DNA of 10,585 nucleotides. Origin: a virus (lineage: Duplodnaviria > Heunggongvirae > Uroviricota > Caudoviricetes). The notes under the pieces are model-generated. The model ran no database searches. It worked only from the letters and a program-made list of their open reading frames with translations, and had not been told where the DNA came from. Positions 1-10,585 of this stretch are shown here, in pieces. Within the stretch, counting starts at the first letter, position 1, and each line of letters begins with the position of its first letter. The position numbers and the translations under genes are program-made. The stretch lies in the IMG/VR virus record IMGVR_UViG_2541047825_000014; one strand, given 5' to 3'.

Positions 1-648
1 ATGGCAGCGACGCACACACTCCCTCTGGCGTCACCGGGCATGGCACGCATCTGCCTTTACGGGGATTTACAACGATTTGGCCGCCGCATCGACCTTCGTG
101 TGAAAACGGGGGCTGAAGCCATCCGGGCGCTGGCCACGCAGCTTCCGTCGTTTCGCCAGAAACTGAATGAGGGCTGGTATCAGGTGCGCATTGCCGGGCG
201 TGATGCAGGCGAAAATGAATTATCTGCCCGTCTTAATGAGCCGCTGGAAAATGGTGCCGTGATTCACATCGTGCCGCGTATGGCGGGAGCTAAAAGTGGC
301 GGTGTGTTTCAGGTGGTGCTGGGGGCGGCGCTGATTGCGGTGGCATGGTGGAACCCTGTGGGCTGGCTGGGTGCTGCGGCTGTATCGGGCATGTATGCGG
401 CAGGGGCCAGTATGATTCTGGGTGGTGTGGCCCAGATGCTGGCACCGAAAGCCAGGACGCCCACGGCAGCCAGTACAGATAACGGCAAACAGAACACCTA
501 TTTCTCCTCACTGGATAACATGGTTGCTCAGGGCAATGTTCTGCCTGTTCTGTACGGTGAAATGCGTGTGGGGTCGCGGGTGGTTTCTCAGGAGATCAGC
601 ACGGCAGACGAAGGTGACGGTGGTCAGGTTGTGGTGATTGGTCGCTGA
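1..648 (+). CDS. I: Phage tail assembly protein I (lambda gpI family)
   Basis: 215-aa ORF starting MAATHTLPLASPGMARICLYGDLQRFGRRIDLRVKTGAEAIRALATQLP and ending GGQVVVIGR, recognised as the lambda gpI family. It sits immediately upstream of J, as in lambda. The ATG is at the window edge, so upstream context is not visible. Confidence 0.85.
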   Translation: MAATHTLPLASPGMARICLYGDLQRFGRRIDLRVKTGAEAIRALATQLPSFRQKLNEGWYQVRIAGRDAGENELSARLNEPLENGAVIHIVPRMAGAKSGGVFQVVLGAALIAVAWWNPVGWLGAAAVSGMYAAGASMILGGVAQMLAPKARTPTAASTDNGKQNTYFSSLDNMVAQGNVLPVLYGEMRVGSRVVSQEISTADEGDGGQVVVIGR

Positions 649-708: not shown

Positions 709-3700
709 ATGGGTAAAGGCAGCAGTAAGGGGCATACCCCGCGCGAAGCGAAGGACAACCTGAAGTCCACGCAGTTGCTGAGTGTGATCGATGCCATCAG
801 CGAAGGGCCGGTTGAAGGTCCGGTGGATGGGTTAAAAAGCGTGCTGCTGAACAGTACGCCGGTGCTGGACAGTGAGGGGAATACCAATATATCCGGCGTC
901 ACGGTGGTGTTCCGGGCAGGTGAGCAGGAGCAGACTCCGCCGGAGGGGTTTGAATCCTCCGGTTCCGAGACGGTGCTGGGTACGGAAGTGAAATATGACA
1001 CGCCGATCACCCGCACCATCACGTCGGCAAACATCGACCGTCTGCGCTTTACCTTCGGTGTGCAGGCACTGGTGGAAACCACCTCAAAGGGGGACAGGAA
1101 TCCATCGGAAGTCCGCCTGCTGGTTCAGATACAGCGTAACGGTGGCTGGGTGACGGAAAAAGACATCACCATTAAGGGCAAAACCACCTCGCAGTATCTG
1201 GCCTCGGTGGTGGTGGATAACCTGCCGCCGCGCCCGTTTAATATCCGGATGCGCAGGATGACGCCGGACAGCACCACAGACCAGCTGCAGAACAAAACGC
1301 TCTGGTCGTCATACACCGAAATCATCGATGTGAAACAGTGCTACCCGAACACGGCACTGGTTGGCGTGCAGGTGGACTCGGAGCAGTTCGGCAGCCAGCA
1401 GGTGAGCCGTAATTATCATCTTCGCGGGCGCATTCTGCAGGTGCCGTCGAACTATAACCCGCAGACGCGGCAATACAGCGGTATCTGGGACGGAACGTTA
1501 AAACCGGCATACAGCAACAACATGGCCTGGTGTCTGTGGGATATGCTGACCCATCCGCGCTACGGCATGGGGAAACGTCTTGGTGCGGCGGATGTGGATA
1601 AATGGGCGCTGTATGTCATCGGCCAGAATTGCGACCAGTCGGTGCCGGACGGCTTTGGCGGCACGGAGCCGCGCATCACCTGTAACGCTTACCTGACCAC
1701 ACAGCGCAAGGCGTGGGATGTGCTCAGTGATTTCTGCTCGGCGATGCGCTGTATGCCGGTATGGAACGGGCAGACGCTGACGTTCGTGCAGGACCGACCA
1801 TCAGATAAGGTGTGGACCTATAACCGCAGTAATGTGGTGATGCCGGATGATGGCGCGCCGTTCCGCTACAGTTTCAGCGCCCTGAAGGACCGCCATAATG
1901 CCGTTGAGGTGAACTGGACTGACCCGGATAACGGCTGGGAAACGGCAACAGAGCTTGTGGAGGACACGCAGACCATTGCCCGTTACGGTCGTAACGTCAC
2001 GAAGATGGATGCCTTTGGCTGTACCAGCCGGGGGCAGGCACACAGAGCCGGGCTGTGGCTGATTAAAACGGAGCTGCTGGAAACGCAGACCGTGGATTTC
2101 AGCGTGGGCGCAGAAGGGCTTCGCCATGTACCGGGCGATGTCATTGAAATCTGCGATGATGACTATGCGGGTATCAGCACCGGTGGTCGTGTGCTGGCGG
2201 TGAACAGCCAGACCCGGACGCTGACGCTCGACCGTGAAATCACGCTGCCATCCTCCGGTACCACGCTGATAAGCCTGGTTGACGGAAATGGCAATCCGGT
2301 CAGCGTGGAGGTTCAGTCCGTCACCGACGGCGTGAAGGTAAAAGTGAGCCGTGTTCCTGACGGTGTTGCTGAATACAGCGTATGGGGGCTGAAGCTGCCG
2401 ACGCTGCGCCAGCGCCTGTTCCGCTGTGTGAGTATCCGTGAGAACGACGACGGCACGTATGCCATCACTGCCGTGCAGCATGTACCGGAGAAAGAAGCCA
2501 TCGTGGATAACGGGGCGCACTTTGACGGTGACCAGAGCGGCACGGTGAATGGTGTCACGCCGCCAGCGGTGCAGCACCTGACTGCCGAAGTCACCGCAGA
2601 CAGCGGGGAGTATCAGGTACTGGCCCGCTGGGACACGCCGAAGGTGGTGAAGGGCGTGAGCTTCCTGCTTCGCCTGACCGTGGCAGCGGACGACGGCAGT
2701 GAGCGGCTGGTCAGCACAGCCAGGACGACGGAAACCACATACCGCTTCAGGCAACTGGCGCTGGGGCGTTACACGCTGACGGTCCGGGCGGTAAATGCGT
2801 GGGGACAGCAGGGCGATCCGGCATCGGTATCGTTCCGGATTGCCGCACCGGCAGTGCCGTCGAGGATTGAGCTGACGCCGGGCTATTTTCAGATAACTGC
2901 CACGCCGCATCTTGCGGTTTATGATCCGACGGTACAGTTTGATTTCTGGTTCTCGGAAACGCGGATTACCGATATCAGGCAGGTTGAAACCACAGCCCGC
3001 TATCTTGGCACGGCGCTGTACTGGATAGCCGCCAGTATCAATATCAAACCGGGCCATGATTATTATTTTTACATCCGCAGTGTGAACACCGTTGGCAAAT
3101 CGGCATTTGTGGAGGCTGTTGGCCAGCCGAGTGATGATGCATCCGGCTATCTGGATTTTTTCAAAGGAGAGATAGGGAAAAGCCATCTGGCTCAGGAGCT
3201 GTGGACGCAGATTGATAACGGTCAGCTTGCGCCTGACCTGGCTGAAATCAGGACGTCCATTACGGATGTCAGCAATGAAATCACGCAGACCGTCAATAAG
3301 AAACTGGAAGACCAGAGTGCGGCAATTCAGCAGATACAGAAGGTTCAGGTTGATACAAATAATAACCTGAACAGCATGTGGGCTGTGAAGCTGCAGCAGA
3401 TGCAGGACGGACGCCTTTATATCGCGGGTATTGGTGCCGGTATTGAGAACACCCCTGACGGCATGCAGAGTCAGGTGCTGCTGGCGGCGGACAGGATTGC
3501 GATGGTTAATCCTGCGAATGGCAACACAAAGCCGATGTTTGTTGGTCAGGGCGATCAGATATTCATGAACGAAGTGTTCCTGAAATATCTGACGGCTCCC
3601 ACCATTACCAGCGGCGGTAATCCTCCGGCATTTTCCCTGACACCGGACGGGCGGCTGACGGCAAAAAATGCCGATATCAGCGGTAACGTGAATGCGAACT

Positions 3701-4188
3701 CCGGGACGCTCAACAACGTCACGATTAACGAGAATTGCCGGGTTCTGGGAAAACTGTCCGCGAACCAGATTGAAGGCGATCTCGTTAAAACAGTGGGCAA
3801 AGCTTTCCCCCGTGACTCCCGTGCACCGGAACGGTGGCCATCAGGGACCATTACCGTCAGGGTTTATGACGATCAGCCGTTTGACCGGCAAATTGTTATT
3901 CCAGCGGTGGCTTTCAGCGGTGCCAGACATGAACGGGAGAATAGCGATACTTATTCGTCATGCCGCCTGATAGTGAAGAAAAACGGGGCTGAAATTTATA
4001 ACCGAACGGCTCTGGATAATACTCTGATTTACACGGGTGTTATTGATATGCCTGCAGGCAGTGGCGTAATGACACTGGAGTTTTCGGTATCAGCATGGTG
4101 GGTAAATGGCTGGTATCCCACAGCAAGTATCAGCGATTTGCTGGTTGTGGTGATGAAGAAAGCCACCGCAGGCATCAGTATCAGCTGA
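709..4188 (+). CDS. J: Tail tip / host specificity protein J (central tail fiber), with a divergent C-terminal receptor-binding region
   Basis: 1159-aa ORF starting [34 protein letters not shown], recognised as lambda gpJ over most of its length. GGAG at 697-700 precedes the ATG at 709. The last ~330 aa (from about nt 3180) are AT-richer and do not look like the lambda LamB-binding C-terminus as I recall it. Confidence 0.95.
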
Positions 4189-4206
4189 ATTTTATAACCC
4201 CAATAC

Positions 4207-4233
4207 GGGCGTCAGAAATGACGCCTTTTTTAT
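4207..4233 (+). terminator. Rho-independent terminator downstream of J
   Basis: GGCGTCA (4208-4214), loop GAAA, TGACGCC (4219-4225), followed by TTTTTT (4226-4231). Confidence 0.7.
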
Positions 4234-4255
4234 TGCAGAAAAGCGAGAGGTAATT

Positions 4256-4855
4256 ATGCGTAAATTATGTGCTGTTATTCTGTCCGCAGTAGTCTGGCTG
4301 GTTGCCGCTGGTACGCCAGCGAGCGCAGCAGAGCATCAGTCCACACTAAGCGCCGGGTATCTTCAGACCCATACTGATATGCCAGGCAGTGATGACCTGA
4401 AGGGCATTAACGTGAAATACCGTTATGAATTTACGGACACGCTGGGGCTGGTGACGTCATTCAGTTATGCCAATGCCAAAGATGAGCAAAAAACGCATTA
4501 CAGCGATACCCGCTGGCATGAAGATTCAGTGCGTAACCGCTGGTTCAGCGTGATGGCGGGGCCGTCTGTACGCGTGAATGAATGGTTCAGTGCTTATGCG
4601 ATGGCGGGTGTGGCTTACAGCCGTGTTTCGACGTTCTCCGGGGATTATCTCCGCGTAACTGACAACAAGGGGAAAACGCACGATGTGCTGACCGGAAGTG
4701 ATGACGGTCGCCACAGCGACACGTCTCTGGCATGGGGGGCTGGCGTGCAGTTTAACCCGACCGAATCCGTGGCCATTGATATTGCTTATGAAGGTTCCGG
4801 CAGTGGCGACTGGCGCACTGACGGTTTCATCGTTGGTGTCGGTTATAAATTCTGA
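4256..4855 (+). CDS. lom: Lom outer membrane protein (Ail/Lom/OmpX/PagC beta-barrel family); lysogenic-conversion moron
   Basis: 199-aa ORF with a signal peptide (MRKLCAVILSAVVWLVAAGTPASA) and a C-terminal GFIVGVGYKF beta-barrel terminus, recognised as lambda Lom. Ribosome-binding site GAGAGG at 4243-4248. Flanked by terminators on both sides. Confidence 0.95.
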   Translation: MRKLCAVILSAVVWLVAAGTPASAAEHQSTLSAGYLQTHTDMPGSDDLKGINVKYRYEFTDTLGLVTSFSYANAKDEQKTHYSDTRWHEDSVRNRWFSVMAGPSVRVNEWFSAYAMAGVAYSRVSTFSGDYLRVTDNKGKTHDVLTGSDDGRHSDTSLAWGAGVQFNPTESVAIDIAYEGSGSGDWRTDGFIVGVGYKF

Positions 4856-4881: not shown

Positions 4882-4909
4882 AGCCCGCCGGTTCAGGCGG
4901 GCTTTTTTG
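4882..4909 (+). terminator. Rho-independent terminator downstream of lom
   Basis: AGCCCGCC (4882-4889), loop GGTTCA, GGCGGGCT (4896-4903), followed by TTTTTT (4903-4908). Confidence 0.7.
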
Positions 4910-4919
4910 TGGAGTGGAT

Positions 4920-6983
4920 ATGGCAGCAGTAAAAATCTCAGGTGTGCTGAAAGATGGTGCGGGAAAACCAATACAGAACTGCACTATTCAACTGAAGGCA
5001 AAGCGTAACAGCACCACGGTACTGGTCAACACAGTGGCCTCTGAAAATCCGGATGAAGCCGGGCGTTACAGCATGGATGTTGAGTATGGACAGTACAGCG
5101 TCACCCTGCTGGTTGAAGGTTTTCCGCCTTCACATGCCGGGACCATTACCGTCTATGAAGGTTCCAGACCAGGTACGCTGAATGATTTTCTCGGTGCCAT
5201 GACGGAAGATGATGTCATGCCGGAGGCATTGCGTCGTTTTGAGGAAATGGTGGAAGAAGCGGCACGCAACGCTGAAGCCGCCTCTCAGAGCGCAGCGGCA
5301 GCAAAGAAATCAGAAACAGCAGCGGCATCGTCCAGGAATGCGGCGAAAACATCAGAGACGAATGCAGGTAACAGCGCGAAAGCGGCAGCTTCTTCAAAAA
5401 CAGCCGCACAAAACGCAGCAACAGCGGCAGAACGTTCAGAGACAAATGCCCGTGCGTCAGAAGAAGCCTCCGCAGACAGTGAAGAGGCTTCCCGCCGTAA
5501 TGCAGAGTCAGCCGCTGAAAATGCCGGAGTCGCCACCACAAAAGCGCGGGAGGCCGCAGCAGACGCAACAAAGGCCGGGCAGAAAAAGGATGAGGCTCTG
5601 TCGGCAGCGACACGGGCTGAAAAGGCGGCAGACCGCGCAGAAGTCGCAGCGGAAGTGACTGCAGAGCCCTATGCGAATATAGTGCCGCCGCTGCCTGATG
5701 TGTGGATACCGTTTAACGATTCACTGGATATGATTGCGGGTTTTTCTCCGGGCTATAAAAAAATAGCTATTGGTGACGATGTGGTTCAGGTCGCCAGTGA
5801 TAAACAGGTTAATTTCAGTCGCGCATCAACGGCAACATATATCAACAAATCTGGCGAACTGAAAACGGCGGAAATTAATGAGCCGCGATTTGAGTGTGAT
5901 GGCCTGCTTATTGAGGGACAAAGAACGAACTACATGCTCAATTCGGAAAGTCCAGCCAGCTGGGGGAAGTCATCAAACATGGATGTGCCCGAAACCGGGA
6001 CGGATAGTTTTGGTTTTACTTATGGAAAGTTTGTCTGCAACGATTCTCTGGTTGGGCAAACTTCGGCTATTAATATGGCATCAATTGCTGCAACAAAGTC
6101 AGTTGATGTCTCAGGCGATAACAAGTACGTGACAACCTCATGCCGTTTTAAAACAGAACGACAGGTAAGGTTACGTATACGGTTTGATAAGTATGATGGT
6201 AGTGCAACAACTTTTCTTGGCGATGCGTACATTGATACGCAAACGCTTGAAATTAATATGACAGGTGGTGCTGCCGGCAGAATTACGGCACGAGTCAGGA
6301 AGGATAAGACCACAGGCTGGATTTTTGCAGAGGCAACGATTCAGGCAATTGATGGTGAGTTAAAAATAGGCTCTCAGATACAGTATTCTCCTGAGCAGGG
6401 TGGGGCAACAGTATCTGGTGACTATATTTATCTTGCCACCCCACAAGTAGAGAATGGGCCGTGTGTATCATCATTTATTATTTCAGGAGGCAGCGCAACG
6501 ACAAGAGCCAGTGATTTGGTTAGTATCCCCACCAGAAATAATCTTTATAAGTTACCATTTACTTTTTTACTTGAGATTCATAAAAACTGGGATATTGCAC
6601 CAAACGCCGCACCCCGCGTGTGGGATATAGCAGCAGCCAATACCGGGCAATCAGCAATTGCAGCAATCAACAGAGGTAGTGGTAAGTTATATATGAGTCT
6701 GTCAAACCCTTCAGGCTCGTATGTTAATAGCGCAGCGACAGATGTATTTGCAGAGAAAACCACATTTGGATGTATTGCAAAAGCTGATGGTCACTTTCAT
6801 GTGGTGACAAATGGTAAAGCGGTTAATGAAGTTTATTGTGAATATAATGGCGTGACCGCTGATAAAAATATCCGATTTGGAGGGCAGACGAATACTGGAG
6901 AACGACATCTGTTTGGCCATATTCGCAATTTCCGCATATGGCATAAAGAATTAAATGACAGGCAATTAAAAGAGGTCGTATGA
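4920..6983 (+). CDS. stf: Side tail fiber protein (Stf-like), mosaic: conserved N-terminal tail-attachment region, Ala-rich repetitive shaft, divergent AT-rich C-terminal putative receptor-binding domain
   Basis: ORF track gives 4914-6983 with a GTG start. I prefer the ATG at 4920 (product MAAVKISGVLKDG..., matching the lambda Stf N-terminus) with GGAG at 4911-4914. No tfa-like gene follows. Confidence 0.85.
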   Translation: MAAVKISGVLKDGAGKPIQNCTIQLKAKRNSTTVLVNTVASENPDEAGRYSMDVEYGQYSVTLLVEGFPPSHAGTITVYEGSRPGTLNDFLGAMTEDDVMPEALRRFEEMVEEAARNAEAASQSAAAAKKSETAAASSRNAAKTSETNAGNSAKAAASSKTAAQNAATAAERSETNARASEEASADSEEASRRNAESAAENAGVATTKAREAAADATKAGQKKDEALSAATRAEKAADRAEVAAEVTAEPYANIVPPLPDVWIPFNDSLDMIAGFSPGYKKIAIGDDVVQVASDKQVNFSRASTATYINKSGELKTAEINEPRFECDGLLIEGQRTNYMLNSESPASWGKSSNMDVPETGTDSFGFTYGKFVCNDSLVGQTSAINMASIAATKSVDVSGDNKYVTTSCRFKTERQVRLRIRFDKYDGSATTFLGDAYIDTQTLEINMTGGAAGRITARVRKDKTTGWIFAEATIQAIDGELKIGSQIQYSPEQGGATVSGDYIYLATPQVENGPCVSSFIISGGSATTRASDLVSIPTRNNLYKLPFTFLLEIHKNWDIAPNAAPRVWDIAAANTGQSAIAAINRGSGKLYMSLSNPSGSYVNSAATDVFAEKTTFGCIAKADGHFHVVTNGKAVNEVYCEYNGVTADKNIRFGGQTNTGERHLFGHIRNFRIWHKELNDRQLKEVV
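5260..5650 (+). repeat. Low-complexity Ala/Ser/Glu-rich degenerate repeats encoding the fiber shaft of Stf
   Basis: Translation contains repeated A-A-K/S-x-S-E-T-N/A-A motifs (AAKKSETAAASSRNAAKTSETNAGNSAKAAASSKTAAQNAATAAERSETNARASEEAS...). The GC-rich GCN-codon runs generate spurious overlapping ORFs on both strands. Confidence 0.6.
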
Positions 6984-7258
6984 AAGATTTAACTTTGAAG
7001 TTTCATGACAAACTGCAGTTTAAGGCCTTCCTGTCATCTCTTGGCTGGGCGGAAGATGAAGACCTCCAGAATAAACTGTTAGTTGATGAAATTGGTTTCA
7101 CCTACACAGAAACAGGGGTAACAGAAGAGGGAGAACCTGTCTGTATCCGGAATGATGGTTATTTTGTCAACATTCGCATTCTTGATGACTTGTTTGATGT
7201 TTCTGTATTCTCTGATTATGTCGTGGAGCTGGAAACACCGCTTCGGGAATGGAGCTGA
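6980..7258 (+). CDS. Hypothetical acidic 92-aa protein, translationally coupled to stf
   Basis: The ATG at 6980 overlaps the stf stop (ATGA at 6980-6983). AGAGG at 6971-6975. No signal peptide or TM segment. No family recognised. Confidence 0.55.
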   Translation: MKDLTLKFHDKLQFKAFLSSLGWAEDEDLQNKLLVDEIGFTYTETGVTEEGEPVCIRNDGYFVNIRILDDLFDVSVFSDYVVELETPLREWS

Positions 7259-7270
7259 AAGGAGGAAATA

Positions 7271-7558
7271 ATGGATATAAGCCCCTTACTTCATGCACTT
7301 TGTGCTGTGGCTGCGCAGATACTGGTTGGTCTTTTTACCGGAAACTGGGCTTACGGAGCGATAGCCGGTTGTACGTTCTTCATTGCGCGTGAACATACCC
7401 AGGCAGAATATCGCTGGATTGAAATGTTCGGGCATGGCAAGCGAATGAATATGCCGTGGTGGGGCGGTTTTGATCCGCGTGCTTGGGATGTGGCAAGCCT
7501 GATGGATTTTGCTGTGCCGGTGGTGGCGTGTCTGCTGATCTGGATGTTGATCCGTTAA
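7271..7558 (+). CDS. Hypothetical small membrane protein (95 aa, two predicted TM helices)
   Basis: Strong ribosome-binding site GGAGGA at 7261-7266, 5 nt before the ATG. Hydrophobic N-terminal segment (LLHALCAVAAQILVGLFTG...AIAGCTFFIA) and C-terminal segment (FAVPVVACLLIWMLI), with a Trp-rich loop (NMPWWGGFDPRAWD). No family recognised. Confidence 0.6.
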   Translation: MDISPLLHALCAVAAQILVGLFTGNWAYGAIAGCTFFIAREHTQAEYRWIEMFGHGKRMNMPWWGGFDPRAWDVASLMDFAVPVVACLLIWMLIR

Positions 7559-7573
7559 ATATAAAAAGTAAAA

Positions 7574-7609
7574 AGCCGCAGTAACTTGTCATGATAGGAT
7601 ACTGCGGCT
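7574..7609 (-). terminator. Hairpin likely terminating the minus-strand dinI-like transcript (possibly bidirectional)
   Basis: AGCCGCAGTA (7574-7583) and TACTGCGGCT (7600-7609) are reverse complements with a 16-nt loop. On the minus strand the hairpin is followed by TTTTTACTTTTTAT (complement of 7561-7573). There is no T-run on the + strand. Confidence 0.45.
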
Positions 7610-7675
7610 GGCTGGTTAACTTTCGATAGTGCGAGTATTGAATGATTTCCAGCCGTTACTGATTTTACGTGCTAA

Positions 7676-7924
7676 TTAGTGAACAAACCACTCATCAGCA
7701 GACTCCCAGGTATCTTTCAGAGTTTCCTGAACAAAAGTTTTAGCTGAATCTTTATCGGCGGTGCGCGTAACAGAAAGGCCATCGTTGCTGGTGGCTTTTA
7801 CGATCACCTCTACATCGTCATAACGTTTACTGATGCGTCGGGTTAATTCTTCCTTTAACGCATCCACAGCACCGTTTGGCATTTTAGTCATTTTTTCTTT
7901 GGCTATGCAGATCTCAATACGCAT
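7676..7924 (-). CDS. DinI-family DNA-damage-inducible protein (prophage-encoded DinI-like)
   Basis: 82-aa [38 protein letters not shown]...[11 protein letters not shown] with the characteristic DinI N-terminus and acidic C-terminal TWESAD(D/E)WF motif. GAGGGA ribosome-binding site upstream. Confidence 0.9.
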
Positions 7925-7937
7925 AAAAGTCCCTCTA

Positions 7938-7989
7938 TACTGTGTTTGTATACAGTGTTATTTTTAACTGTATGGATAAACAGTGTCAA
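7938..7989 (-). promoter_or_regulatory. SOS-regulated sigma70 promoter of the dinI-like gene with two tandem LexA boxes
   Basis: Two CTGT-N8-ACAG motifs: box 1 TACTGTGTTTGTATACAGTG (7938-7957) and box 2 AACTGTATGGATAAACAGTG (7966-7985). On the minus strand a perfect -35 TTGACA (complement of 7984-7989) abuts box 2, and a -10-like TAAAAA lies 17 nt downstream (complement of 7961-7966). The -35 overlaps the integrase stop codon. Confidence 0.7.
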
Positions 7990-9083
7990 GAGGTCTTATT
8001 TCTGCTCCTTTGGAGCTCTTCAAAACGATTATGTAAAGATTTCGGATACAGTTCGGTATATACCTGCCATAGCACGTTTAATGAACGATGCCCTGTAACC
8101 TGAGCGACTTCCTCAATACTAAAACCAGCCTCAAATAAGCGACTTGCCCCTTCTCTACGCAAATCATGGTATCGCAGATCTTTAATACCTAATTTGCTTC
8201 TTACCCTCTGAAATCCTGCAGTAACAGAAGTGCTGTTATATGGAAAAATGAATTCCGATTTTTTGGGCTGTCGTTGGACGATATCCCAGGCTTCCCCAAG
8301 CAAGGCTACTTTCATGTGGTTGCCTTCCTTTTTGCGTGGATCTTTCCTGTCTCTTACGAGTATAGATTTTTGTTCCTGGTCGAGATCTTCCCATCGTAAC
8401 CGGCATACTTCTCCGATCCGCATACAGGACCACACAGAAAATTTGAGGATATCAACGAACGGAATTTTTGAGCATTTATGAGTAGATCGTTGTTGAAGGC
8501 CTTCAATGAGCATGTCCAGTTCATCAGATGCTGGTCTACGATTACGACGGTTTGATTTACCAATCAAACCAAGTTTAAGTAGATATGGGCGAGCGCTTTT
8601 CGCCGGGTTTGATGTGTAATTAATTCCGTATACAGGTTTGGCCGCATCCAGAACACTGCCAAGATAACTAACATCGTGGCTGACTGTTGCTGGACCTGCA
8701 CCAGCGTTGTTTCTTAGCCTGCAATGTTCAATTACGTCATTTTCTGTCAGTTCAGATAGTTTGATCGCGGAGATGTCACTATCCATAAGCAGTTCCAGCA
8801 CATATCTTTTAGTACGGCCTGCTTTACCTCCGGCATTTGGGTCATTTAAATATTTGTGTAGTAAGTCACGGACTGTAAGTCCGTCAACTGCATTTGATGA
8901 TGGAATGCCATATAGATCTAATTCCATCACTTTCTGTGTTCCCCATGTTTTGGCATGAGCATGTTTAGGGAATGTTTTGCTTTCCCTGTAAGTGATAACA
9001 CCTTTTTCTTTGATAATCACATTACAGCGATAGCGTGGTGTGCCATCGGATTTTAGTCGTTTCTCTATGTTATAGTACGCCAT
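7986..9083 (-). CDS. int: Phage integrase, tyrosine site-specific recombinase family
   Basis: 365-aa ORF. The C-terminal catalytic region carries R...HxxR...Y hallmarks (RYHDLRREGASRLFEAG...VTGHRSLNVLWQVYTEL). It diverges from dusA with an 88-bp intergenic spacer. Confidence 0.93.
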   Translation of the reverse strand: MAYYNIEKRLKSDGTPRYRCNVIIKEKGVITYRESKTFPKHAHAKTWGTQKVMELDLYGIPSSNAVDGLTVRDLLHKYLNDPNAGGKAGRTKRYVLELLMDSDISAIKLSELTENDVIEHCRLRNNAGAGPATVSHDVSYLGSVLDAAKPVYGINYTSNPAKSARPYLLKLGLIGKSNRRNRRPASDELDMLIEGLQQRSTHKCSKIPFVDILKFSVWSCMRIGEVCRLRWEDLDQEQKSILVRDRKDPRKKEGNHMKVALLGEAWDIVQRQPKKSEFIFPYNSTSVTAGFQRVRSKLGIKDLRYHDLRREGASRLFEAGFSIEEVAQVTGHRSLNVLWQVYTELYPKSLHNRFEELQRSRNKTS

Positions 9084-9101
9084 TACACGACCTCGTTATT
9101 T

Positions 9102-9139
9102 CGGGTTCCCATAAAACGTGGGAACCTGTGCGGGAACCT
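9102..9139. repeat. Three copies of a GGGAACC/GGGTTCCC heptamer (one inverted, two direct) in the int-dusA intergenic region; candidate integrase or regulator binding sites or att-associated repeats
   Basis: cGGGTTCCCataaaacgtGGGAACCtgtgcGGGAACCtaacg read directly from the sequence. Confidence 0.4.
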
Positions 9140-9171
9140 AACGCGAGAAAAATAGCCTGAAATGTTCAAAA

Positions 9172-10209
9172 ATGCACGATAATCATGAAACACAAAAAAT
9201 TAATCAAACCAGCGTGATGCCTGAAAAAACTGGTGTTTACTGGAATTCTCGGTTTAGCATTGCTCCTATGCTTGACTGGACGGACAGACATTGCCGTTAT
9301 TTCTTGCGTCTGCTTTCCCGCAATACGTTGTTGTATACCGAAATGGTGACCACAGGGGCGATTATTCACGGTAAAGGTGATTACCTGGCGTACAGTGAAG
9401 AAGAACATCCGGTAGCGTTGCAACTCGGGGGTAGCGATCCGGCGGCGCTGGCACAGTGTGCGAAGCTGGCAGAAGCGCGTGGATATGATGAGATCAACCT
9501 GAATGTCGGCTGCCCGTCTGACCGGGTGCAGAACGGCATGTTTGGTGCGTGTCTGATGGGTAATGCGCAGCTGGTTGCCGACTGCGTGAAAGCGATGCGC
9601 GATGTGGTGTCGATTCCGGTGACGGTGAAAACGCGTATTGGCATCGATGATCAGGACAGCTATGAATTTCTCTGCGATTTCATCAACACCGTTTCCGGCA
9701 AAGGTGAGTGTGAGATGTTCATCATCCACGCACGTAAAGCCTGGCTTTCTGGGTTAAGTCCGAAAGAAAACCGTGAGATCCCGCCTCTCGATTATCCGCG
9801 TGTGTATCAACTGAAGCGTGACTTTCCGCATCTGACGATGTCGATTAACGGTGGTATCAAGTCGCTGGAAGAAGCTAAAGCGCATTTGCAACATATGGAT
9901 GGCGTGATGGTCGGGCGCGAGGCGTATCAGAATCCGGGTATTCTGGCGGCGGTAGACCGAGAGATTTTTGGTTCCTCGGATACCGATGCCGATCCGGTGG
10001 CGGTAGTGCGCGCCATGTATCCGTACATTGAGCGTGAACTCAGCCAGGGTACGTATCTCGGCCATATTACCCGGCATATGCTGGGCTTGTTCCAGGGTAT
10101 TCCTGGCGCGCGGCAGTGGCGGCGTTATTTAAGTGAAAATGCCCATAAAGCGGGTGCAGACATTAATGTGCTGGAACACGCGCTCAAACTGGTGGCGGAT
10201 AAGCGTTAA
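9172..10209 (+). CDS. dusA: tRNA-dihydrouridine synthase A (DusA)
   Basis: 345-aa ORF with a Dus-family TIM-barrel signature ([17 protein letters not shown]...NLNVGCPS...). The exact start is uncertain: the ATG at 9172 has no clear ribosome-binding site, and an in-frame alternative lies at 9217. The first ~150 nt are notably AT-rich compared with the rest of the gene. Confidence 0.9.
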
Positions 10210-10238
10210 CTTTTCACCAAAAAGTAGTCAAATTCACC

Positions 10239-10268
10239 ACGCCCTGCGCACCGTCGCGGGGCGTTTTG
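10239..10268 (+). terminator. Rho-independent terminator downstream of dusA
   Basis: ACGCCCTGCG (10239-10248), loop CACCGT, CGCGGGGCGT (10255-10264) giving a 10-bp stem with one U-G wobble, followed by TTTTGCT. Confidence 0.55.
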
Positions 10269-10290
10269 CTGTTAAATCAATAGATTATTT

Positions 10291-10307
10291 TTGGCATGAT
10301 TCTTGTA
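10291..10307 (+). promoter_or_regulatory. Sigma54 (-24/-12) type promoter upstream of pspG
   Basis: TTGGCATGATTCTTGTA fits the TGGCAC-N5-TTGCW pattern (GG at 10293-10294; TTGT at 10303-10306), about 35 nt upstream of the pspG ATG. pspG is known to be sigma54/PspF dependent. Two TTCACCA direct repeats (10213-10219, 10233-10239) lie upstream. Confidence 0.5.
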
Positions 10308-10342
10308 ATGCCAGCAAGAGATTTCATATTTGGGAGAGCATC

Positions 10343-10585
10343 ATGCTGGAACTACTTTTTGTAATTGGCTTTTTTGTCATGCTGATGGTCACCGGTGTTT
10401 CGTTGCTGGGTATTATCGCCGCGCTGATTGTGGCGACGGCCTTTATGTTCCTCGGCGGTATGCTGGCATTGATGATTAAGTTGCTGCCGTGGCTGCTGTT
10501 GGCGGTTGCGGTGGTGTGGGTGATCAGGGCGATTAAAGCACCAAAAGTGCCGAAATATCAGCGTTATGACCGCTGGCGTTACTAA
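10343..10585 (+). CDS. pspG: Phage shock protein G (PspG), small inner-membrane protein
   Basis: 80-aa product MLELLFVIGFFVMLMVTGVSLLGIIAAL...KYQRYDRWRY. Ribosome-binding site GGGAGAG at 10332-10338. The longer ORF-track start at 10133 is an in-frame upstream extension across the promoter and is not credible. Confidence 0.9.
   Translation: MLELLFVIGFFVMLMVTGVSLLGIIAALIVATAFMFLGGMLALMIKLLPWLLLAVAVVWVIRAIKAPKVPKYQRYDRWRY

Follow-up and report, generated by a model that had tools for sequence, protein, structure and literature searches.

The window, a stretch of 10,585 nucleotides of viral DNA (Caudoviricetes; IMG/VR record IMGVR_UViG_2541047825_000014), carries tail genes whose order matches that of a lambda-type cluster, where K, I and J are followed by lom and the side tail fibre gene (Table 1). 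It covers no more of the E. coli prophage than its right end, and an 81-nt capsid pseudogene fragment is annotated nearby in the closest genome. Gene J is a single intact open reading frame with 82% amino acid identity to lambda J over its full length, and the closest E. coli genome carries a gpJ annotation at this position. Six Pfam families (FNIII-A_GpJ, Phage-tail_3, Ig_J, Ig_J_second, Phage_Tail_Tip and Ig_GpJ_C) scored above their curated cut-offs and are arranged as expected for a lambda-type J; J thus has both the domain series and the tail-cluster position of a lambda-type tip attachment protein. Its length equals that of J from the plaque-forming phage PhiR55_1 and its dN/dS is 0.06-0.12; judged from its sequence, J is likely functional. 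Directly 3' of the J stop codon lies a terminator-like hairpin, and the records of phages 21 and 434 have annotated terminators at the equivalent position.

Table 1. Features of the J locus; positions are those of the window and residue numbers (aa) those of its J.
Feature	Position	Strand	Remarks
Gene I	1-648		tail gene cluster, before J
Gene J, tail tip attachment protein / central tail fibre	709-4188	+	1159 aa; ORF list and translation
Lambda-like part of J: hub domains and two FNIII/Ig domains	709-3107	+	GC 58-59%
Divergent block 1: alpha-helical shaft and upper central straight fibre	3108-3585	+	aa ~801-959
Conserved junction	3586-3776	+	aa 960-1023; GC 57%
Divergent block 2: Ig-like receptor-binding domain (RBD) allele, 1A2/VT1-Sakai family	3777-4188	+	Pfam, alignment, fold
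Pfam Ig_GpJ_C	3793-4185	+	aa 1029-1159; E 3.2e-37
PhiR47_1-type sub-allele patch	3862-4109	+	aa ~1052-1134
Terminator-like hairpin and T-run	4207-4236	+	8-bp stem, 4-nt loop, TTTTTATT tail; consensus scan
Ail/Lom	4256-4855		tail gene cluster, after J
Tail fibre N-terminal domain protein	4920-6983		after Ail/Lom

We mapped the mosaic breakpoints of J by sliding identity against seven reference J genes. The bulk of the gene had been described as lambda-like in an earlier note on this DNA, and this was borne out: up to ~3108, nucleotide identity to lambda was 87-100% per 100-nt bin and mostly at least 94% (~95-99% as a whole), and the N-terminal 800 residues of lambda gpJ are ~97% identical to those of the window J. 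When lambda, 434, phage 21, PhiR55_1 and 2H10 were compared together, identity over this part was 91-100% per 90-nt bin, with the exception of bins of 88-90% around 2330-2700 and 2959-3138. In contrast, J of VT1-Sakai is only 58-93% identical to the window up to ~2868 (its N-terminal 2100 nt), and thus shares the distal modules only. The same note had treated 3180-4188 as a divergent C-terminal region. Divergence from lambda is indeed present there, but it forms two blocks, ~3108-3585 and ~3777-4188, on either side of a conserved stretch; we therefore rejected one continuous divergent region, as sliding identity resolved two blocks, the junction between them and a patch nested in the second. 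The specificity region of J has previously been described as an independently recombining unit (PMC6646904).

Base composition told less than identity did. GC content fell from 58.4% (709-3179) to 51.5% (3180-4188), and a single change-point test on J gave a likelihood ratio of 25.9, compared to a maximum of 20.4 among 300 codon shuffles. Thus, the distal part of J is AT-richer, as had been claimed from about 3180 onwards. However, the best change point lay at ~2883, ahead of both swap boundaries, and lambda's own J shows a comparable drop, from 59.3% to 53.2%. Because lambda J drops similarly, composition alone is no mark of a swap, and the GC drop was rejected as a sign of foreign origin.

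Block 1 is the long variant of the shaft, with 27 residues more than lambda. BLASTP against lambda J placed a 27-aa gap at lambda residues ~836-858, inside the helical shaft, which spans residues 809-861 in lambda (PMC11101478). Its nucleotide identity was 18-78% to lambda, 434, PhiR47_1 and 2H10, 88-97% to VT1-Sakai and 96-100% to phage 21 and PhiR55_1. A single-sequence AF2 model predicted a long helix at residues 840-899, with pLDDT 65-88 there; since the mean pLDDT of the shaft model was 54, we take it as weak support for helicity only. The swap in block 1 is distinct and concerns the shaft; the receptor binder is not part of it. The junction downstream of it was kept in every lambdoid J aligned and, from this conservation, is likely the recombination joint between modules. 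It also contains the gpJ fusion point of Brodel et al., lambda residue 964 (residue 991 in the window), which was chosen because it is among the last stretches identical across natural gpJ proteins (PMC11338833).

To compare receptor-binding ends, amino acid identities were taken over the same columns of the specificity region (lambda J residues 960-1132). Here the window J was 47% (47.1%) identical to lambda, 49% to 434, 67% to A8/2H10, 70% to phage 21, 93-94% to VT1-Sakai (93.0%) and PhiR55_1, and 98% to PhiR47_1. The LamB-specific region of lambda type was not matched, and the loops around 1012, 1048, 1077 and 1107 differ. Thus, the alignment to lambda J that the earlier note had proposed as a check revealed no near-identity across the C-terminal domain. 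J ends in the residues that the note quotes. The note's statement that the final ~100 residues do not resemble lambda held in sequence (42% identity over the last 149 residues), but not in kind: the Pfam domain is the same, and so is the fold. An AF2 monomer model of the RBD, of moderate confidence (pLDDT 79 overall and 81-97 over most of the Ig domain, blocks 51-150), superposed on the solved gpJ fibre-tip domains of lambda and A8. Its best Foldseek matches were 9wca and 9wcb (A8 gpJ; 9wca is the closed form), followed by 8xck and 8xcj (closed lambda gpJ and lambda gpJ713-LamB, respectively); these four fibre entries had E-values of 9e-19 to 8e-17 and query-normalised TM scores of 0.65-0.68, and the next match was at 1e-4. 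A PDB sequence search likewise returned A8 gpJ as the best match (E 2e-95). A protein database search with the RBD returned mainly short contig-end fragments and was used for structure alignment and cluster sizes only. As both the Pfam domain and the predicted fold match those of lambda and A8 gpJ, the RBD is a diverged allele of lambda's domain, not another domain.

A link to a receptor is provided by the engineered gpJ chimera 1A2, which makes lambda particles use OmpC in place of LamB (Brodel et al., Nature 2024, PMC11338833). In delta-lamB delta-ompC cells, 1A2 delivers only when a suitable ompC is supplied; it works on 20 of 23 OmpC variants, including that of EDL933, and fails on those of K-12 (G1), G2 and G40 (PMC11338833). 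The C-terminus of 1A2, given in the supplement of that paper, corresponds to the VT1-Sakai allele at 155 of 160 readable residues. This sequence came from a machine-read PDF with insertion and deletion errors, and all five mismatches coincide with misread positions, including one stop codon. As frameshifts in the machine-read text made plain tblastn unusable for 1A2 and A8, both were aligned by a frameshift-tolerant protein-to-DNA alignment calibrated on A8, which read in this way scores 96.9% to 2H10, though the A8 sequence in the PDB is 100% identical to 2H10. By sequence comparison, the RBD of the window is therefore nearly identical to an allele whose dependence on OmpC has been demonstrated by experiment.

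Host listings offer circumstantial evidence in addition. The six PhiR phages with an RBD of the 1A2/VT1-Sakai family have ECOR13 or E. coli C as listed host, never K-12; PhiR11_1 and mEp332, with ~40%-identical RBDs of lambda/434-like classes, are listed on K-12. In the available literature we found no receptor for PhiR47_1 or for the sub-allele of the window: PMC13190303 gives no receptor for the PhiR phages, and the SNIPE paper reports only ManYZ dependence. A 2026 receptor-prediction preprint was set aside as not relevant, since it concerns Drexlerviridae-type GpJ and explicitly excludes the lambda C-terminal domain.

Within the RBD, the nested patch sets the window apart from its relatives. 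In the patch, 41 of 248 nucleotides differ from PhiR55_1, compared to two mismatches in 3700-3861 and none in 4110-4260; relative to PhiR47_1, it is 97-100% identical. dS was 0.69 in the patch, compared to 0.12 elsewhere in J. Overall, the data did not support positive selection on the patch, and its dN/dS of 0.12 points to mainly purifying selection. Over the full RBD, 12 residues differ from 1A2/VT1-Sakai (window residue first: R1073K, R1076K, N1078H, S1079T, T1081I, K1090R, T1109S, S1118H, V1120H, W1131L, G1134N and S1157T), and all except S1157T fall in the patch. Six of the 12 lie in three predicted loops (1076-1079, 1118 and 1131/1134) and V1120 is the first strand residue after the second of these; the putative receptor-contact loops are thus not identical to those of 1A2/VT1-Sakai. 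W1131 and G1134 align with lambda H1104 and D1107, and 1076-1079 with lambda 1048-1051. In lambda, residues 1107 and 1012 were universally required for the switch from LamB to OmpF (PMC6646904). Because the differences cluster in loops and include the counterparts of 1104 and 1107, the patch might, though less probably than not, define a distinct specificity sub-type; it would more likely differ from 1A2 in its range of OmpC variants than in the porin itself. If so, it could accept, for example, the OmpC of K-12, G2 or G40, which 1A2 cannot use, and would be a third module, available as it stands, for retargeting delivery particles based on lambda.

Taken together, J is a recombinant lambda-type central tail fibre whose RBD most likely binds OmpC rather than LamB (probability roughly 0.78). 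This supports the earlier suggestion of an altered receptor specificity through a C-terminal swap, with 47% identity to lambda and 93% to the allele of the OmpC-using 1A2. That the domain instead still binds LamB, and has merely drifted neutrally within a LamB-binding family, is scarcely credible. It does share the Pfam domain and fold of lambda's LamB-binding domain and keeps framework motifs (DDxPFDRQIV, VIDMPAG and the C-terminal KK..GIS), but only 47% of its specificity region matches lambda, its putative contact loops are entirely different, and the near-identical domain of 1A2 brings DNA into cells that lack lamB, in an OmpC-dependent manner (PMC11338833). We also consider it very improbable that J is what is left of a decaying prophage, with a C-terminal divergence that serves no function today. 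The restriction to a prophage right end, the capsid pseudogene fragment in the closest genome and the J of VT1-Sakai, itself split by mutation, would fit decay; against it stand the intact 1159-aa frame, in which each of the six J domains passes its Pfam cut-off, a dN/dS of 0.06-0.12, an RBD core identical in hundreds of genomes and an RBD 98% identical in the isolated phage PhiR47_1.

A shift of the PhiR47_1-type patch to another outer-membrane protein, such as OmpF or another porin-like barrel, is less easily dismissed, though still unlikely. It would be in line with the twelve substitutions relative to 1A2, half of them in predicted loops and including the 1104/1107 counterparts, 1107 being one of the two lambda residues required in the LamB-to-OmpF switch; moreover, the patch lineage is old (dS 0.69) and so had time for functional divergence. 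However, the RBD remains 93% identical to an OmpC-binding allele, and selection on the patch has been mainly purifying (dN/dS 0.12). Even A8, with no more than 67% identity, is an OmpC binder, and OmpC use in this clade thus spans much larger distances than that between the window and 1A2. OmpC use by the sub-allele of the window, and the range of variants that it accepts, are inferred.

In the model that we propose, homologous recombination would have put J together out of at least four modules: the lambda-like hub and FNIII part, the long (+27 aa) helical shaft of phage 21/VT1-Sakai type, the RBD of the 1A2/VT1-Sakai family, and the PhiR47_1 sub-type core patch within it. The trimeric Ig-like fibre-tip domain would insert its distal loops into the extracellular vestibule of the trimeric porin OmpC. 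If the solved complexes of lambda with LamB and of A8 with OmpC are a guide, binding would splay the domain, twist the beta-prism fibre and flip the helical shaft, and the tail-tip hub would open for DNA ejection. The same RBD sub-allele occurs with a long shaft in the window and with a short one in PhiR47_1, which suggests that the shaft, as relay of the receptor signal, can be combined with a receptor binder to which it is not closely co-adapted.

The RBD family was found in 3350 of 5426 complete E. coli genomes (62%), and the RBD core of the window at 99% or higher nucleotide identity in 230 records. As the family is one of the most frequent in prophages of E. coli, the RBD of the window is a standard alternative allele and not an unusual alteration: the swapped receptor-binding end of J is real but ordinary, and its family has been described. 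Exchange of the J specificity region is already documented (PMC6646904) and exploited in engineering (PMC11338833), and as a discovery it carries little weight. Its value lies in annotation, which would mark the prophage as a probable user of OmpC and not of LamB; this assignment bears on its predicted host range and superinfection behaviour.

Several known gpJ systems can be set against that of the window. Lambda gpJ carries a homologous Ig-like domain on the same fibre, which binds LamB, and its helical shaft is 27 residues shorter. J of phage 434, reported in classical work to use OmpC, is lambda-like with a swapped C-terminal domain; at 49% identity in the specificity region and with several indels relative to the window, it represents a separate RBD lineage. 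A8, whose C-terminus is that of phage 2H10 J, shares the fold of the window RBD (Foldseek E ~1e-18, TM ~0.65) and has been solved with a receptor (9wcb, 'Open state of A8 gpJ 713 central tail fiber with OmpC G17 from E. coli EDL933'). Its loop sequences differ, however, with a 6-residue deletion after FPR and a 5-residue insertion NQQSY, and A8 accepts K-12 OmpC whereas 1A2 does not; for both, delivery has been shown to require OmpC and not LamB (PMC11338833). Closer still is the 1A2/VT1-Sakai allele (prophage Sp15 of E. coli O157:H7, and also many long-tailed Stx phages), with a 93% identical RBD, no indels and the same C-terminal tail. Natural VT1-Sakai J has the long helical-shaft variant, as in the window, but is split by mutation where the window J is intact; OmpC use was shown experimentally for 1A2, from which the window RBD differs by twelve substitutions. 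Among these systems, the closest RBD is that of Escherichia phage PhiR47_1 (PV340566), from the temperate phage panel of Brenes & Laub 2025, which is 98% identical with the whole patch included; its J, of 1131 residues, has the short lambda-type shaft in contrast to the long shaft of the window.

The tail tip attachment gene J is one intact open reading frame (1159 aa, 709-4188) with the full Pfam J domain set, including Phage_Tail_Tip at aa 872-1000 and Ig_GpJ_C, the C-terminal receptor-binding domain (RBD), at aa 1029-1159 (E 3e-37). The C-terminal peptide of J is the one quoted in the earlier note. The protein is 82% identical to lambda J over its full length, and full-length J is 95.9% identical to that of phage PhiR55_1. 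Consistent with the claim that the bulk of J is lambda-like, DNA identity to lambda was 87-100% per 100-nt bin (mostly at least 94%) until ~3108, followed by 24-69% at ~3109-3500, 80-88% at 3509-3708, and 50-55% from ~3709 to the end. The divergence described for 3180-4188 was thus present, but as two low-identity blocks separated by a conserved junction. Similarly, the C-terminus differs from that of lambda as had been noted, but with 42% identity over the last 149 aa it is a diverged homologue and not unrelated sequence. The reported increase in AT content was also observed, with GC dropping from 58.4% upstream of 3180 to 51.5% downstream (LR 25.9, compared to a maximum of 20.4 in 300 codon shuffles). 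However, the best change point in J was at 2883, and GC declines to a comparable extent in the J gene of lambda itself (59.3% to 53.2%); thus the GC shift is real, yet not diagnostic of a swap. Opposite the GC-rich part of J, a 461-aa antisense ORF (1801-3186, minus strand) most likely results from codon bias and does not represent a gene.

Comparing the window bin by bin (90 nt) against lambda, PhiR55_1, PhiR47_1, phage 21, VT1-Sakai, 434, 2H10, and the E. coli genome closest to it resolved J into the segments listed in the table. In the structural scheme of Ge & Wang (PMC11101478), block 1 corresponds to the alpha-helical shaft, which spans residues 809-861 in lambda, together with the upper end of the beta-prism fibre. 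It carries a 27-residue insertion relative to lambda; a low-confidence single-sequence model places a long helix at J aa 840-899. The junction contains the equivalent of lambda aa 964, the fusion point of the gpJ chimeras of Brodel et al. (PMC11338833). In the nested patch, synonymous divergence from PhiR55_1 was 0.69, compared to 0.12 in the rest of J (patch dN/dS 0.12), indicating that the patch is an old sub-lineage acquired via recombination and not the result of recent mutation. Furthermore, the window's RBD sub-allele is joined to a long shaft here and to a short lambda-type shaft in PhiR47_1 (J 1131 aa), and the long (+27 aa) shaft is also paired with a phage 21-type RBD, in phage 21. 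Thus, these modules assort independently, and the length of the J shaft does not appear to go with a particular receptor.

Segments of J and features of the prophage right end
Feature	Coordinates	Orientation	Closest references or description	Diverged from
Hub and FNIII/Ig part	709-3107		all lambda-like references	VT1-Sakai (58-93% until ~2868)
Block 1, helical shaft and upper fibre	3108-3585		phage 21, PhiR55_1 (96-100%), VT1-Sakai (88-97%)	lambda, 434, PhiR47_1, 2H10 (18-78%)
Conserved junction	3586-3776		close to all references	none
Block 2, RBD	3777-4188		VT1-Sakai, PhiR55_1, PhiR47_1 family	lambda, 434, phage 21, 2H10
Nested patch in block 2	3862-4109		PhiR47_1 (97-100%)	PhiR55_1, VT1-Sakai, closest genome (84-86%)
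Terminator-like hairpins with T-runs	4207-4236, 4882-4912		directly after J and after lom	
Side tail fibre gene	within 4914-7558		~687 aa, lambda-like N-terminal domain	
Two small ORFs	6980-7258, 7271-7558		3' of side tail fibre	
DinI-like gene	7676-7924	minus		
Tyrosine integrase	7986-9083	minus	divergent from dusA	
dusA	9172-10209	opposite to integrase	pspG next; prophage end (7986-10585)	

When the last 149 aa of J were searched against phage records with tblastn, the matches fell into classes at 92-98% identity (PhiR47_1, 2G7b, VT1-Sakai, many long-tailed Stx1a/Stx2a phages, and PPompW), 62% (phage 21, 1H12), 57-60% (Stx1a phages, 2H10, Turner), and 40% (434), with lambda as noted. Over the columns aligned to lambda residues 960-1132, the J "specificity region" (Maddamsetti et al., PMC6646904), the window was 98.3% identical to PhiR47_1, 93.6% to PhiR55_1, 93.0% to VT1-Sakai, 70.2% to phage 21, 66.7% to 2H10, 49.1% to 434, and 47.1% to lambda. 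A 291-nt RBD core had a match of at least 99% in 230 complete-genome records, 3350 of the 5426 E. coli genomes that are complete had at least one member of the RBD family (at least 80% nt identity) and often more, and a 99%-identical protein cluster held 466 member sequences. The phenomenon, the RBD allele family, and the likely receptor have already been described, and little here is new.

Brodel et al. (Nature 2024, PMC11338833) placed natural gpJ C-termini on lambda gpJ and obtained the OmpC-dependent chimeras 1A2 and A8, with delivery assayed in delta-lamB delta-ompC cells supplied with ompC alleles. Their sequences were taken from the supplement, where machine reading had introduced insertions and deletions, and were therefore aligned with a frameshift-tolerant protein-to-DNA method. 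Of 160 readable residues in the 1A2 C-terminus, 155 were identical to the VT1-Sakai allele, and all five exceptions fall at reading errors (one a stop codon). The window matched machine-read 1A2 at 144/160. As a calibration, machine-read A8 was 96.9% identical to 2H10, whereas the deposited A8 (PDB 9wca) is 100% identical to 2H10 in this region. Furthermore, window aa 976-1159 were modelled with AF2 (pLDDT 79), and the top four Foldseek matches of the model were 9wca, 9wcb (open-state A8 gpJ 713 central tail fibre with OmpC G17 of E. coli EDL933), 8xck, and 8xcj (E 1e-18 to 1e-16; next 1e-4). The module structure, the identity of the domain and its fold, and the close match to an OmpC-dependent allele are established, and OmpC is the most likely receptor of the window's J (probability roughly 0.78). 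Altogether, the AT-richer divergent tail of the earlier note was confirmed in part, and its proposal of a receptor-altering C-terminal swap is supported. Separately, phage 21 and the proven OmpC binder A8/2H10 share 82.7% identity in the specificity region, which raises the question of OmpC use by phage 21.

1A2 delivered efficiently to 20/23 OmpC variants and failed on G1 (K-12), G2, and G40, whereas A8 accepted K-12 OmpC and was weak with G40, G55, G56, and G67 (PMC11338833 source data); recognition is thus set by the RBD and OmpC alleles together. The window differs from VT1-Sakai/1A2 by 12 substitutions (window residue first: R1073K, R1076K, N1078H, S1079T, T1081I, K1090R, T1109S, S1118H, V1120H, W1131L, G1134N, S1157T), and mainly for this reason it may accept a range of OmpC variants other than that of 1A2. 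Half of these substitutions (6/12) fall within three predicted loops; V1120 starts the strand that follows the second loop. In the alignment, predicted loop 1076-1079 falls opposite lambda 1048-1051, W1131 opposite H1104, and G1134 opposite D1107. Both lambda 1107 and the indel site at 1048-1049 belong to the positions named by Maddamsetti et al. (PMC6646904) as determinants of host range and natural hot spots. Host fields list ECOR13 or E. coli C for the six PhiR phages with the window's RBD family, and K-12 for PhiR11_1 and mEp332, whose ~40%-identical RBDs are of lambda/434-like classes. This pattern agrees with the failure of 1A2 on K-12 OmpC and offers weak, circumstantial support for OmpC use.

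In the lambda-LamB complex, the RBD spreads, the prism twists, the shaft flips, and the hub opens (PMC11101478). By analogy, the J trimer would bind the OmpC trimer via its distal loops, and binding would spread the RBD, twist the prism, flip the helical shaft, and open the hub; the "open state" of the A8-OmpC structure suggests the same trigger with OmpC.

The window covers the right end of a lambdoid prophage that sits beside dusA in E. coli. Its best whole-window match (98.1% identity), E. coli O2:H6 PG20180057, has the order tail assembly I, gpJ, Ail/Lom, side tail fibre, two small ORFs, DinI-like, integrase, dusA, pspG. The hairpins bracket lom as its own small unit. GC is ~40-46% across 4914-7558; the side tail fibre C-terminus weakly matches, below threshold, a lectin domain of the concanavalin-A-like type (Laminin_G_3, E 3e-5), and the two small ORFs had no Pfam matches. 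Between these fibre-associated ORFs and the DinI-like gene, the equivalent of 81 nt (7599-7679) is annotated in the closest E. coli genome as a capsid protein pseudogene fragment, and the stretch is probably a recombination scar. The position of the integrase fits the known family of dusA-specific integrases.

In the Stx1 prophage VT1-Sakai, J (978-4450 of its sequence) has the RBD allele found in the engineered 1A2; it is annotated as two ORFs, split by mutation, and this natural copy may be defective although its C-terminal module works when transplanted. Phage 21 shares the window's fibre layout: its ~2.06 kb fibre gene precedes two ORFs, 279 and 294 nt long. In the window the integrase shares one prophage end with J, lom, and stf, an arrangement unlike that of the lambda prophage.
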